A stretch of DNA of 64,000 nucleotides, taken from contig CAWDVR010000001.1 of NCBI GenBank assembly GCA_963805975.1, positions 320,001-384,000 on the forward strand, read 5' to 3'. The notes below the pieces were generated by a model. That model worked only from the letters and a program-made list of their open reading frames with translations. It was not told the origin of the DNA and searched no databases. How positions within the stretch are numbered: the first letter of the stretch is position 1; the number at the start of each line of letters is the position of its first letter. This document shows positions 18,778 to 25,642 of this stretch, piece by piece. A program made the position numbers and the translations under genes. Source of the stretch: an uncultured Acidobacteriota bacterium (GTDB lineage Bacteria > Acidobacteriota > Thermoanaerobaculia > Multivoradales > SZUA-115).

Positions 18778-19674
18778 TCAGACCGGCAGTGCGCGCAGCA
18801 CCTCGCGCACGGCCGGTACGGAGAGGCTGTTGCCCACCAGGCGCCAGGCATGGGCGAGCGGCAGTGTCTGCGGCAGCCGGTAGTGGGCTGGAAAACCCAA
18901 CAGATTGAGGATCTCGCGCGGTGAGAAGCGCCGCAGGCCCGGCGCCGTTCGCCCTCCCTCGGTTCTCAGGTAGGAGCCGCTCCGGACCGGCGAGCGGCCG
19001 TAGGCCGAGGTGAAGCAGGCGGAGAGGGCCGCGGGATCGCCGGCGTCCACCACGTCGATCGCCTGCCGGTAGCGGTCCGCCAGCGCGGGGTCGAGGGTCA
19101 GCGCGGCCGGCGCTTCCTCCTCCGGCAGCCACTCGAGGCAGCTCCGCAGCGGTACGGGGCTCGGCGCGGCCGGCGCCTGCCCGGCGAAGCCGCGGCGCGA
19201 GGCCACCAGGTAGAAGCGGAGCCGGCGGTTCGGGAGCCCCAGCGAAGAGGGGCAGAGCAGGCGCTCCGACACTTCGTAGCCGGCGGCGGCGAGCACCTCG
19301 CGGAGCTGGCCATGGGTGCGCGAGCCCTCGAAACCCGGCACGTTCTCGAGGGCGAGGAACGTGGGCCGCACCTCGCCGATCCGCTGGAGGAGCGCAAGGA
19401 GGGCCCAGGAGCGCGGGTCCTCGTCGTCCCGTTGCCGCCCGCGCCGGGTGAACGGCTGGCAGGGTGGGGACATCCACCACAGGTCCGCGCCGATCTCGGC
19501 CAGCTCGGCCGCCGAGACCGATTCGATCGTTCGCGCGGCGAGCGGATGCGGGAAGTTGGCCGAGTAGACGCCGAGCGCCCCGCGATGGATGTCGATCGCC
19601 CGCACCACCTCGGCCCGGCCGGCCAGCGCCGCCGCGGCACCGCCGATGCCGCAGAAGAGCTCGAGCGCTCGGAC
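18778..19674 (-). CDS. C5-cytosine methyltransferase of the Dnmt2/TRDMT1 (tRNA C38) type
   Basis: Motif I (V)RALELFCGIGG lies upstream of the ORF-track start; MSPPCQPFTRRG, LENVPGF, PNRRLRFY, CFTSAYG..RSGS, LRRFSPREI..LLGFP, LVGNSLSV. The start position reads GTC behind an AGGAG RBS. Confidence 0.85.
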   Translation of the reverse strand, partial: VRALELFCGIGGAAAALAGRAEVVRAIDIHRGALGVYSANFPHPLAARTIESVSAAELAEIGADLWWMSPPCQPFTRRGRQRDDEDPRSWALLALLQRIGEVRPTFLALENVPGFEGSRTHGQLREVLAAAGYEVSERLLCPSSLGLPNRRLRFYLVASRRGFAGQAPAAPSPVPLRSCLEWLPEEEAPAALTLDPALADRYRQAIDVVDAGDPAALSACFTSAYGRSPVRSGSYLRTEGGRTAPGLRRFSPREILNLLGFPAHYRLPQTLPLAHAWRLVGNSLSVPAVREVLRALPV

Positions 19675-21986: not shown

Positions 21987-22859
21987 GTGCCGCCCGAGAT
22001 CGATCCCGACGACCCCTGGCTCTTCGAGCGCCAGGGGCTCGACTGGCGTTGGCTCTCGTGGCGCGAGGCGGCGGCCTCGATCGAGATCCTTTCGGCCGCG
22101 CTCGCCGCGCTGGCGCCGGGGAGCAGAGTGGCCTTCGACGGCCGGGCGAGCGTCGCCTCGGTGCTCGCCGACTGCGCGGTGCGCGCCGCCGGCCTCACCG
22201 CGGTGCCGGTCGTCGCCCAAGACCCTTCGGCCTTGGCGGAAGCGGCGCGGACACGTGGCGCGCAGGCGTGGCTGCCGCTGAGCTCCTCGGTGCCGGAGGT
22301 CGAGGAAGGCCTGTCCCTCCTCGCACTGCCAGCGGATCTCTCTTTCGGCGCGCCGCGGCTCCATCCTCCGGCCGGCCGGCCTGGGCGCTCGGCGCTCCCG
22401 GATGCCGCCGGCCTCGGGGCTCTCGCCACCGGTGGCGCCGTGGTGACCGGCGCCGCGGGCCACGCGCGGCTCGATACCGCCGAGCTCGAGGGGGAGGCGC
22501 GCCGCGTCAGCCAAGATCTCGGGGTGGCCCCGGCGCGAGACATCACCGTCCTCGCCGGCTCGTTGGAGCTGCCGCTCTCCCGCATGGCTCTCACCTGGGC
22601 CCTGGCCGCGGGAGCCGTGCTCGTCCTCGAGCCGGACGCGCAGGCCGGCGAGAGCGTCGCCGCCTGGGCGCGTCCCACGGTGCTCGCCGCGACCGCGAGC
22701 GAGCTCGCGCGCTGGGCCGACATGGCCGCCGAGGGCCGCGGCGGGAAGCGCTCGCCGCTCGGCCGGCTGCGCGCGTGGATGGTGGAGCAAACTGGGGGCC
22801 TACCCGAGGGAACTGTCGACTTCTGGCGGGAGCGCGGAACGGTTCTGGTGCGCTGCTGA
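21987..22859 (+). CDS. Degenerate AMP-binding-domain-like hypothetical protein
   Basis: WRWLSWREAAA..., AAGLTAVP, RPTVLAA resemble the N-terminal part of acyl-CoA ligases; no TSGxTGxPKG loop. Confidence 0.55.
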   Translation: MPPEIDPDDPWLFERQGLDWRWLSWREAAASIEILSAALAALAPGSRVAFDGRASVASVLADCAVRAAGLTAVPVVAQDPSALAEAARTRGAQAWLPLSSSVPEVEEGLSLLALPADLSFGAPRLHPPAGRPGRSALPDAAGLGALATGGAVVTGAAGHARLDTAELEGEARRVSQDLGVAPARDITVLAGSLELPLSRMALTWALAAGAVLVLEPDAQAGESVAAWARPTVLAATASELARWADMAAEGRGGKRSPLGRLRAWMVEQTGGLPEGTVDFWRERGTVLVRC

Positions 22860-22869
22860 GCCCACGGCT

Positions 22870-23700
22870 TCAGGTGCTCTGGAGAGCCGTGACCACGTAA
22901 CCGAAGCCCTCGGCACGGCTGTAGCCGGCGCCCTCGAACGCGTCGATCTCAGCCTCCATGGGCTCCATGAACCACGCTTCGGTCCCGAGCGCCCCCGGCA
23001 TGGCCCAACCCGGCCCCTTGCGGTTGGCGGTGTTCGTTCCCTTCGGGTACTTCACCTTGTCGCCGAGCCCCAGGCTCTTCAGGACGTAGGCGCAGCGAGG
23101 GCAGGTAGGCTTGGTGATCCGGATCTCGGTAATGTGACTGAAGGTCCCACTTCCGGTGCTGACGAACTGCGCCAGGGCCGCCATCTCGGCGTGGACCCCG
23201 GTACTTCCGCTGTAGCTTCCGGAGTAGTTGCCGGCGGCGGTGCGGACCTCGGCGTCGCAGCTATAGCTGCTCTCGGAGTCGTCCTTCGCATCGGCCACCT
23301 CCCAGGCGGCGTTCACACTGCCGACCGCTCCGGTTGCCGCGATCGTCAGCTTCAGGGTGTCGAAGAGCTGCTGCGCCCTGCCCGCGTTCCTCACCGCTCG
23401 CGCCGGCCTGGAGAGTTGCACCGCGGCAGGGCTTGGCTTGAAGTGTGCCGAGGGCCCCACCGCGCGCTGTACCGCAGCGCTCCTTGCCAGAGCCTGCTGC
23501 ACGTGGTGGGCGAGCGGCCGCTGCCCGGCCGCCGCCGGTCGCGCCTGGGCTACCGCCATCGCGTTCTGCACGTGAGGCGCCACGGCTCGCGAGGCCTGCG
23601 CGGCAGTCGGAGGCCGCCCGGCGCCGGGGAAGGCAGCGCGAAGCTGGATGGCGCGCTCTACGTGCGCGGCGAAGTGGGAGCCAGCTCGCGGTGGGGCCAT
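22870..23700 (-). CDS. Putative Zn-dependent nucleic acid/nucleotide deaminase (toxin-like) with low-complexity repeat leader
   Basis: ATG at 23700; VHAEMAAL, IRITKPTCPRCAYVL and GWAMP motifs; N-terminal AAHVERA/APHVQNA/AHHVQQA and AVQR/AVQL repeats. Confidence 0.75.
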   Translation of the reverse strand: MAPPRAGSHFAAHVERAIQLRAAFPGAGRPPTAAQASRAVAPHVQNAMAVAQARPAAAGQRPLAHHVQQALARSAAVQRAVGPSAHFKPSPAAVQLSRPARAVRNAGRAQQLFDTLKLTIAATGAVGSVNAAWEVADAKDDSESSYSCDAEVRTAAGNYSGSYSGSTGVHAEMAALAQFVSTGSGTFSHITEIRITKPTCPRCAYVLKSLGLGDKVKYPKGTNTANRKGPGWAMPGALGTEAWFMEPMEAEIDAFEGAGYSRAEGFGYVVTALQST

Positions 23701-23793
23701 GGGCTTGAGTCCAGGTGGTCGGGACAGGAGCTTTCGCCTCCGGAGGATATCCCAGGCCCCGTGGTATAAAACCGGCCCACGAGGAGAGATCGC

Positions 23794-25257
23794 ATGGCCG
23801 AGGCCACGAGCCAGCTCAGCAGGACCGCGGACGGCGATCCGCCGCCGGTAGCGCTGCCGCCCGCCAACGAGGCGTCGGCGCTCGAGGAGATCCACGAGCG
23901 CGCCGACACCGTGTGGACGCGGGGGAGCGGCATGCGGGGCATCCCGAAGCTCGCCAAGCGCCTGCTCAAGGGCAAGGGCGGCCGGGTGGCGATCGTCGAC
24001 GGGCTGCGCACGCCGTTCCTCAAGGCGGGCACCGCCTTCAAGGACATGGACGTGGTGGACCTGGCGGGTGTGGCCGCCGGCGAGCTCGTCACCCGCAGCG
24101 CCATCGACCCCAAGGAGATCCAGCTCTCGATCTTCGGCGTCGTGGTGCCGGCTCTCCACGCTCCCAACCTCGGACGCGAGGTGGTGTTCCGCGCCTCGCT
24201 GCCGGCGGGCATCCCCGGCTCGACCGTCAACCTCGCCTGCGCCTCCTCGAACCGCGCCATCGCCTACGGCGCGCAGGCGATCCTCGCCGGCGAGTGCGAC
24301 GTGGTGCTGGCCGGGGGCGCCGAGTCTCTTTCCAACGTACCGATCACGTTCTCGAAGCGCGCCGCCGACAAGCTGATGCGCTTTGCCAAGGCGAGGTCGC
24401 TGCCGGCCAAGCTGGGCGTGGCCTCGGAGCTGCGACTCGGAGACCTGGCGCCGGTGGCACCGGCCATCGCCGAGTACACGACCGGGCTCACCATGGGCGC
24501 CTCGGCGGAGAAGATGGCCAAGGAGAACGACATCTCGCGCCGCTCGCAGGACGAGATCGCCTTGATGTCGCACCAGCGTGCCGCGGCGGCTGCGGCCGAA
24601 GGCCGGTTCGACGGCCAGGTGGTCGCCACCTTCCCGCCGCCGGGCTACGACCAGCCGGTGACGCACGACAACGGCGTCAGGAGCGACAGCTCGCTCGCCG
24701 CGCTGTCGCAGCTCCCGCCGGTCTTCGACAAGCGCTACGGCACGCTGACCGCCGGCAACTCGAGCCCGATCACCGACGGCGCCTCGGCGGTGCTCTTGAT
24801 GAGCGAGGAGAAGGCCAAGGCCCTGGGCTACGAGCCGCTGGGCTACCTGCGCTCCTTCGCCTTCGCCGCGGTGGACCCGGGGGCGCAGCTCCTCCAGGGC
24901 CCGGCCTACGCCGCGCCCATGGCGCTCGATCTCGCCGGCGTCAAGCTCAAGGACATGGACCTGGTGGAGATGCACGAGGCGTTCGCGGCGCAGATCATCT
25001 CCAACTTGAAGGGCTTCTCGTCGAAGAAGTTCGCCAGCGAGGAGCTGGGCCGCGCCGAGCCGCTCGGGCACGTGGACTTCGCGCGCTTCAACGTCAACGG
25101 CGGCTCGATCGCCATCGGCCACCCGTTCGGCGCCACCGGCGCCCGCGTCACCTTCCAGTTGCTCAATGAGCTCAAGCGCCGCGGCGGCAACCTCGGCCTG
25201 GCCACGGTCTGCGCGGCGGGCGGCGTGGGCTTCGCGATGGTGGTGGAGCGGGAGTAA
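23794..25257 (+). CDS. fadI: Acetyl-CoA C-acyltransferase (3-ketoacyl-CoA thiolase, FadI-type)
   Basis: DGLRTPF, NLACASS (catalytic Cys), [34 protein letters not shown]; GAGGAG RBS; TGGTATAAA -10-like element at 23762-23770. Confidence 0.9.
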
Positions 25258-25378
25258 GGCGGCTTGTAGCCCACGACGCCCTGGCCCGCGACCCGCGAGG
25301 CGATCGAGTCGAAGTCCGCCCGCAAGCGCAGGAAAACAGTGCGGCTCAGGTGTCTCCGCCTTCCGCAGCAGCCAAGAG

Positions 25379-25642
25379 GTGGTGCAGACGGTGCAGGGCC
25401 TCGCGCTGGCATCGCCTCGCCCGGCTTCCGGGGCGACCGGCCTGCTCGGGCCGCTCGTCGAGTCGGCGCTGGCCGTCTCCGCGGGTGGTGGGCTCGCCAG
25501 GGTGAAGGTCTGCGGCGGTGAGTGCTGGCTCTTCCTCGACACCAGCCGCATGGGCCGCCGCCGCTGGTGCGACATGAAGGACTGCGGCAACCTCGCCAAG
25601 GTGCGGCGCTTCCGCGCCCGCGAGCGAACGGGCGCCGCCTAG
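25379..25642 (+). CDS. CGNR zinc-finger protein (short, lacking most of the ABATE domain)
   Basis: [39 protein letters not shown]; start uncertain. Confidence 0.7.

Follow-up and report, generated by a model that had tools for sequence, protein, structure and literature searches.

A repeat-bearing leader joined to a predicted zinc deaminase in an uncultured acidobacterium: a possible toxin of a contractile injection machine

Introduction

In the cytidine deaminase (CDA) superfamily, the HxE motif supplies a zinc ligand and the catalytic glutamate and the CxxC motif binds zinc. Deaminase toxins carried by injection systems are already known, and the kind of protein described here is not new. 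The OTT_1508-like clade (Pfam PF14441) is defined by GxxK ahead of CxxC and an aromatic-x-x-P loop, and the group has been suggested to deaminate cytosine (Iyer et al. 2011, PMC3239186). EAT11, a toxin associated with an extracellular contractile injection system (eCIS) in which DUF4157 is joined to a deaminase, kills both E. coli and yeast (PMC8213781). DUF4157 serves in the same source as a marker of eCIS, and disordered N-termini are described as eCIS loading sequences (PMC8213781, PMC11297309, PMC3482391, bioRxiv 10.64898/2026.05.27.728243). DddA and DddB/BadTF3 (PDB: 6u08, 8e5d and 9k3e) are deaminase effectors of type VI secretion systems (T6SS), and DddA has a cognate immunity protein (title of 6u08). 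Effectors can also be recognized by N-terminal markers such as MIX, FIX, RIX, DUF4123, DUF1795 and DUF2169 (PMC10673891).

Here we describe a gene within a 64,000-nt stretch of an uncultured Acidobacteriota genome (the window). Its product, encoded at 22870-23700 on the minus strand, is named P0002, the source genome G000 and the other genomes compared G followed by three digits.

Results and discussion

The P0002 gene and its locus

The gene lies between two housekeeping genes of opposite strand:

22870..23700 (-): P0002 gene, 276 aa, a repeated leader plus a deaminase domain; a discrete insertion between the AMP-binding gene and the thiolase
21987..22859 (+): flanking AMP-binding-family gene, convergent, outside the system
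23794..25257 (+): flanking thiolase, divergent; its antisense frame creates an apparent 909-aa ORF

Translation from ATG 23700 to the stop at 22870 yields 276 aa, the final 276 codons of a 909-aa ORF (22870-25599, minus strand). The initial annotation had taken this part for a separate gene, which is borne out by the homologues: five were recovered from 5022 candidates, one of them labelled Thermoanaerobaculia by its source, and the three full-length ones (P0004, P0005 and P0007) all open with the P0002-type leader. The upstream portion of the ORF is antisense to the thiolase (Pfam, E 5e-64) and has a GC3 of 0.70 versus 0.96 in the thiolase. A single 909-aa protein was ruled out by the homologue starts together with this antisense position and GC3. 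No clear ribosome-binding site precedes ATG 23700. The presence of a signal peptide was judged from hydropathy only, the best 12-residue mean in P0002 being 0.83. The surplus of A/T-ending codons reported for the catalytic half stands in part: its GC3 of 0.87 is below that of the thiolase (0.96) and of an M48 gene (0.94), but equals that of the AMP-binding neighbour (0.88). The bias is weak, as the catalytic half lies at the 12th percentile of 3068 genes and the leader (GC3 0.79) is more A/T-ending.

The P0002 gene is an insertion. In G686, a genome of the same genus, about 150 bp separate the end of the AMP-binding gene from the thiolase and the deaminase is absent (empty site); both genes likewise adjoin in G688, G689, G695, G161 and G189, and the thiolase loci of 11 relatives fetched contained no deaminase match. 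The same insertion is present on a soil contig, with a diverged leader region, and the orthologue in G133 sits in a different neighbourhood. Neither a target-site duplication nor mobile-element ends were evident at the insertion. In G691, two unrelated genes fill the same gap (L194:4199-7085), which suggests a possible insertion hotspot. The window also holds, some 3 kb away from the deaminase, a short C-5 cytosine methyltransferase-like gene (18778-19608, minus strand; Pfam DNA_methylase, E 1e-27).

The deaminase domain

The C-terminal part of P0002 contains the following features:

22873..23412 (-): deaminase-fold domain, residues 97-276, from AlphaFold2 and from structure and sequence matches
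23185..23193 (-): H170-A171-E172, predicted zinc ligand and catalytic glutamate, invariant in 65/65
23092..23103 (-): C200-x-x-C203, predicted zinc ligands, invariant in 65/65
23257..23259 (-): C148, an extra cysteine ahead of strand 1, shared by at least 90% of family members
22996..23007 (-): W232-x-x-P235, loop after strand 4 (aromatic-x-x-P), pattern present in 53/65 members

The motifs were found where they had been reported (VHAEMAAL at 23196-23173, IRITKPTCPRC at 23124-23092 and GWAMP at 23010-22996). The catalytic half, searched against 1.84 billion representatives, retrieved 70 matches at E <= 0.001. From these, 63 were aligned with P0002 and P0003 to give 65 sequences; the seven omitted were three long proteins of repetitive sequence and four fragments about 110 aa in length. 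The initial reading of HxE and CxxC as deaminase motifs agrees with the invariance of H170, E172, C200 and C203 throughout the aligned relatives, which shows that the motifs did not arise by chance. The Pfam model dCMP_cyt_deam_1 matched 60 of the 65 members at E <= 0.01 (six at E <= 5e-6) and OTT_1508_deam matched 48 (five at E <= 5e-6). All 22 matches of the family profile among PDB sequences were deaminases, the closest being T4 dCMP deaminase (E 5e-7).

The AlphaFold2 model of residues 101-276 (pLDDT 91.7, pTM 0.87) places HAE and CxxC each at the opening of a helix and lacks the fifth core strand. In a VIA structure comparison the first 19 rows were all titled deaminases or a TadA editor (Z 6.1 for the best match, with an rmsd of 3.6 across 90 residues). 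The top rows include enzymes for guanine, cytidine and dCMP, and the subfamilies are tied, many of them having free nucleosides or nucleotides as substrates. Foldseek, proposed earlier as a check, was run with two models and gave nothing at E <= 0.001. The initial annotation had named a CDA-like fold as a point on which its reading could fail; the model, the VIA rows and the PDB sequence matches all indicate a deaminase. As these lines of evidence are consistent but the subfamilies are tied, the fold is secure and the substrate is not. P0002 is very probably a zinc deaminase. Its substrate would most likely be cytosine in a polynucleotide (DNA or RNA), to which we assign about an even chance.

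P0002 had been likened to OTT_1508-like deaminases, a comparison that holds as a resemblance. Both have HxE, CxxC and the aromatic-x-x-P loop, the fifth strand is missing from the model, DUF4157 (PVC-metallopeptidase) and T6SS-type carriers occur in both groups, and PF14441 is the best Pfam match of P0002 (PMC3239186). Its score, however, is 22.7 bits against a cut-off of 27, and only 5/65 members are near or above that cut-off. Read against Table 1 of PMC3239186, GxxK is missing from all 65 sequences: P0002 has RITK, glycine occurs in 0/65 and lysine in 25/65. The residue ahead of aromatic-x-x-P, conserved as polar and usually histidine in the clade, is lysine in the consensus, and the P0002 family differs further by its extra conserved cysteine before strand 1. 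With the aromatic-x-x-P pattern in 53/65 members and GxxK in none, the family resembles the OTT_1508 clade without belonging to it. DddA and DddB share with P0002 the fold and the T6SS delivery proposed here, but match its structure weakly (Z 3.5-3.8, under the housekeeping deaminases); P0002 has neither PAAR nor RHS and, unlike DddA, no immunity protein.

The family is patchily distributed (2/201 class genomes). With its profile, G000 was the only one of 401 phylum genomes to score at E <= 1e-6 (six candidates scored per genome); a metagenome scan with the close subfamily confirmed 0/441 stretches, and tblastn against plasmids and phages gave no match. An atlas feature search with the homologue P0004 returned a single cluster without a name (0.82), which serves only as a lead. 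The 180-aa domain is a candidate from an unnamed deaminase family.

The leader and its dispersed family

The N-terminal third of P0002 consists of a repeated leader:

23413..23700 (-): leader, residues 1-96, Ala/Pro/Arg/Gln-rich, net charge +9, with three [APH]HV[QE] repeats, ending in AVQL
23656..23667 (-): leader repeat 1, AHVE
23566..23577 (-): leader repeat 2, PHVQ
23497..23508 (-): leader repeat 3, HHVQ
23413..23424 (-): VQ(L/R/P) junction from the leader to the variable tail, recurrent across the family

The repeat follows the pattern [AP]HV[QE]xA, and no Pfam or NCBIfam family covers the leader. In the leader model, pLDDT is below 50 and three short helices are seen. The homologues are 39-43% identical to P0002 in the leader versus 57-66% in the catalytic part. 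Two repeats within 80 residues occur in 9 of 43,649 ORFs of G000, compared with a mean of 0.36 and a maximum of 2 in 72 shuffles and with none in reversed ORFs. A motif HMM combined with a profile search raised the repeat-bearing genes of G000 to 16, two of them apparently frameshifted, and a linked DUF4157 subtype without repeats added two further genes, giving 18 family genes at 12 sites. The designation of P0002 as an orphan has therefore to be dropped, as its N-terminal third is a leader common to 16 G000 genes of a dispersed effector family. Most leaders terminate in the VQ(R/L/P) junction, and the sequences behind it are diverse, with two related pairs among 17 tails compared. Fusions of the leader to DUF4157 are seen in P0082 and in two genes of G000; with other tails, the leader recurs in G133, G564 and seven further database proteins. 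Within the repeats, the His-Val codons vary synonymously as those of the genome do, so that the motif is selected at the protein level; a DNA-level palindrome as the origin of the repeat was ruled out by this variation. No convincing shared promoter motif was found upstream of the 18 family genes, and neither a sigma-70 site nor a terminator was found.

Four further G000 tails look deaminase-like by eye ([HC][AS]E ... PC...C): C2:204105-204914(-), C2:474096-475337(+), C3:466234-467247(-) and C6:169238-170017(-). The C3 tail alone has a Pfam match (dCMP_cyt_deam_1, E 4e-5), and the two C2 tails are related (36% identity).

As in the MIX-, FIX- and RIX-type markers, a conserved N-terminal module precedes variable tails and a stand-alone copy occurs beside vgrG (PMC10673891); in contrast to them, the leader is a short low-complexity repeat without Pfam or NCBIfam match. 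That survey of vgrG neighbourhoods does not mention DUF4157 in its main text. A search of freely accessible literature found no description of the HVQ leader, the DUF4157 subtype or the P0002 family. With many dispersed effector genes marked by one simple repeat, new effectors could be sought through it in uncultured Thermoanaerobaculia-like bacteria.

Exchange of carriers and tails

By pattern labels, the N-termini of the 65 deaminases comprise seven HVQ leaders, 14 PPVYRP-type leaders, four DUF4157 domains, one RHS core (TIGR03696) and nine other types; 30 have almost no N-terminus, some of them probably truncated calls. In a tree of 28 of the 65 sequences, which contains some long branches, a single clade of the seven leader-bearing members was rejected (p-AU 3e-8), and the tail of the RHS-core protein P0063 grouped with the leader-bearing deaminase P0057 (100/100). 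One C-terminal domain on several carriers and one carrier with several tails is the criterion for polymorphic toxins; judged from its sequences, the deaminase family shows this pattern. At L099:13-3932, a deaminase of the P0002 family is immediately followed by tandem genes with leaders of the PPVYRP type, which represent a second low-complexity leader family.

Linkage to the type VI secretion system

We consider it probable, with good confidence, that P0002 is an exported effector. Its leader would tag it for loading into a contractile injection machine, in all likelihood the T6SS of the lineage rather than another system, and would be read by the machine itself or by an adaptor. A stand-alone DUF4157 protein encoded beside vgrG may serve as the latter. 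Once injected, the domain would deaminate bases, most likely cytosine in DNA or RNA.

G000 carries one T6SS, whose tssC is in pieces, and two eCIS loci; no FHIPEP match was found in this genome. Four of its 18 family genes fall in the stretch from clpV to just beyond vgrG/PAAR, one of them 22 nt before vgrG, a linkage that taken alone is not significant (P 0.11). The P0002 gene itself is on a different contig from the T6SS. A leader gene of G133 begins at the stop of clpV, and in G159 and G167 two genes of the DUF4157 subtype each lie between clpV and vgrG. In G564, which has the leader and both machines, 60 kb around tssC contained no family gene. Family genes are thus found at the T6SS locus in 4/5 genomes and at 0/5 eCIS-like loci examined, which favours T6SS delivery, although the linkage rests on two lineages with one common locus layout. 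A 29-row DUF4157 tree separates 25 copies from T6SS loci, dispersed sites and deaminase fusions from four eCIS-locus copies (97/95, bootstrap not fully settled). The DUF4157 subtype sits in T6SS loci, though DUF4157 is used as an eCIS marker, and eCIS-toxin predictions based on this domain may therefore mix two machines.

The subtype pattern matches 6/201 class genomes. Four of these hold 3-10 copies; all four have VipB (24/201 across the class) and three have Pvc16_N (28/201, a tally that includes the unpublished G179 and G004). VipB is also present in 3/3 genomes with the full leader. Three further genomes with the deaminase family all have Pvc16_N, and one has VipB. Three verified alphaproteobacterial carriers of the subtype, from the Allosphingosinicella genus, count against the T6SS: they show no VipB (6/121 genomes of the genus have it), and two of them have Pvc16_N and gp19. 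They lack HVQ repeats, and they are draft genomes with completeness not given. Single pattern matches in G059, G127, G617 and G585 were excluded from the carrier counts, as the DUF4157 core was not seen. Of the two subtype genes between clpV and vgrG in G159 and G167, one is a tail-less DUF4157 gene of about 200 aa that lies divergently just before vgrG (L140:10609-11199 and L143:10330-10971, respectively) and is a candidate for a T6SS adaptor. In G000, tssC is split into five pieces, which together with the two frameshifted leader genes are found at C6:145168-146072 and C1:440962-443506; tssC is also fragmented in G564 and G159. Such breaks may reflect assembly error or decay.

For the mode of delivery alone, we hold the T6SS to be evenly balanced against all other routes. 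The overall reading, a leader plus predicted zinc deaminase forming a toxin loaded into an injection machine, most likely the T6SS, is drawn from sequence and in our estimate could go either way.

Alternative readings

The same toxin may instead be eCIS/PVC cargo, its disordered leader being a loading sequence read by a Pvc15-like AAA ATPase. This reading was preferred at one stage and downgraded after the locus and DUF4157-tree evidence, and we now consider it rather unlikely. G000 does hold two eCIS loci, Pvc16_N occurs in 4/5 genomes with this deaminase family versus 28/201 class genomes, and in the fifth, G133, neither Pvc16_N nor gp19 was matched, but a divergent sheath/baseplate/PAAR locus is present. 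System-specific disordered N-termini are reported for eCIS cargo (bioRxiv 10.64898/2026.05.27.728243), which often comes without immunity genes (PMC3239186, PMC8213781), and alphaproteobacterial subtype carriers lack VipB. The leader-DUF4157 fusions point the same way, although DUF4157 is seen on paralogues and homologues and not in P0002. EAT11, compared by its description, likewise places a deaminase on an injection-system targeting module and has the architecture of this family's DUF4157 fusions (PMC8213781); P0002, in contrast, is without DUF4157 and distant from every eCIS operon, and the subtype linked to it differs from the eCIS-locus copies. The genomic positions argue against eCIS loading: five eCIS-like loci (two in G000 and 40 kb each in G133, G159 and G167) contain no family gene and 0/18 family genes lie within 10 kb of either G000 eCIS locus, whereas 88% of known eCIS toxins are encoded within ten genes of the operon (PMC11297309). 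Moreover, the DUF4157 copies at eCIS loci form a separate group in the tree, no leader was matched in the 27 further class genomes positive for Pvc16 (with only 24 candidates scored in each), and Pvc16_N is so common in Allosphingosinicella (56/121) that it says little there. A portable export or processing module, composed of leader and DUF4157 subtype and using any host injection system or an unrecognized route, would account for G649, in which the subtype was found and VipB, Pvc16_N, gp19 and Baseplate_J were not, and for the lack of a single marker common to all carriers. The carriers are draft genomes of unclear completeness, however, and a single machine is suggested by the position between clpV and vgrG, which is conserved; we regard such a module as distinctly unlikely.

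Two other readings dispense with export or with the leader altogether. P0002 may be an intracellular enzyme, either an anti-phage deaminase that depletes or mutates nucleotides or a salvage deaminase, with a leader irrelevant to export. T4 dCMP deaminase as the closest solved sequence, the guanine, cytidine and dCMP deaminases heading the structure comparison and the missing immunity gene would suit this very unlikely case, which is contradicted by the RHS and DUF4157 fusions of the same domain, by its patchy distribution and by the housekeeping neighbours without any PADLOC match. It is extremely improbable that the leader is untranslated and that translation really starts around residue 94, where the 182-aa P0003 (87% identical) is called to begin. 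Gene calls without leader exist for P0003 and P0006, a clear ribosome-binding site before ATG 23700 is missing and the GC3 of the leader is low; yet the leader is open, in frame and conserved at the protein level in P0004, P0005 and P0007, its repeats vary synonymously, and the soil contig retains a diverged stretch of about equal length at the leader position.

Target and immunity

As initially noted, no immunity gene adjoins the P0002 gene, the downstream neighbour being the convergent AMP-binding gene 11 nt away. Based on our own gene calls, no small co-oriented immunity candidate was recognized after 15 listed family genes either. A target cell only distantly related to the producer, perhaps a eukaryotic one, is proposed here and would account for the missing immunity genes. 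Of the 47 members with a long enough stretch ahead of the domain, 12 have an NLS-like basic cluster there, versus 1.3% of 2889 genome windows; 500 shuffles gave a mean of 4.4 and a maximum of 11, and such clusters occur in 1/65 C-terminal windows. Since this test was post hoc, the members are related and P0002 itself has no NLS-like cluster, the inference of a eukaryotic target is only moderate, and we place its chance a little short of even. Of the two roles proposed initially, effector or defence, the toxin-like character is supported by the swapped carriers and the fold; a role in defence is not, as PADLOC matched 0/9 proteins and the neighbours are housekeeping genes only.

The broadest proposal is that the HVQ leader and the DUF4157 subtype are an undescribed effector marker of a genome-wide, immunity-free arsenal of 18 genes, with five deaminase-like tails, delivered by the T6SS to eukaryotic nuclei, and that P0002 is the founding member of an unnamed clade of nucleic-acid deaminases of compact size. 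We advance this combination tentatively and hold it doubtful as a whole.

Other injection-related observations came from the genomes compared. The divergent G133 locus mentioned above (L085, C12:60000-79999) is contractile-injection-like, with weak sheath, Baseplate_J, PAAR and spike matches and neither Pvc16_N nor gp19. The Pvc16_N count in the Allosphingosinicella sample reflects a high eCIS frequency in that genus, and G563 and G592 contain tandem arrays of DUF4157 toxins.
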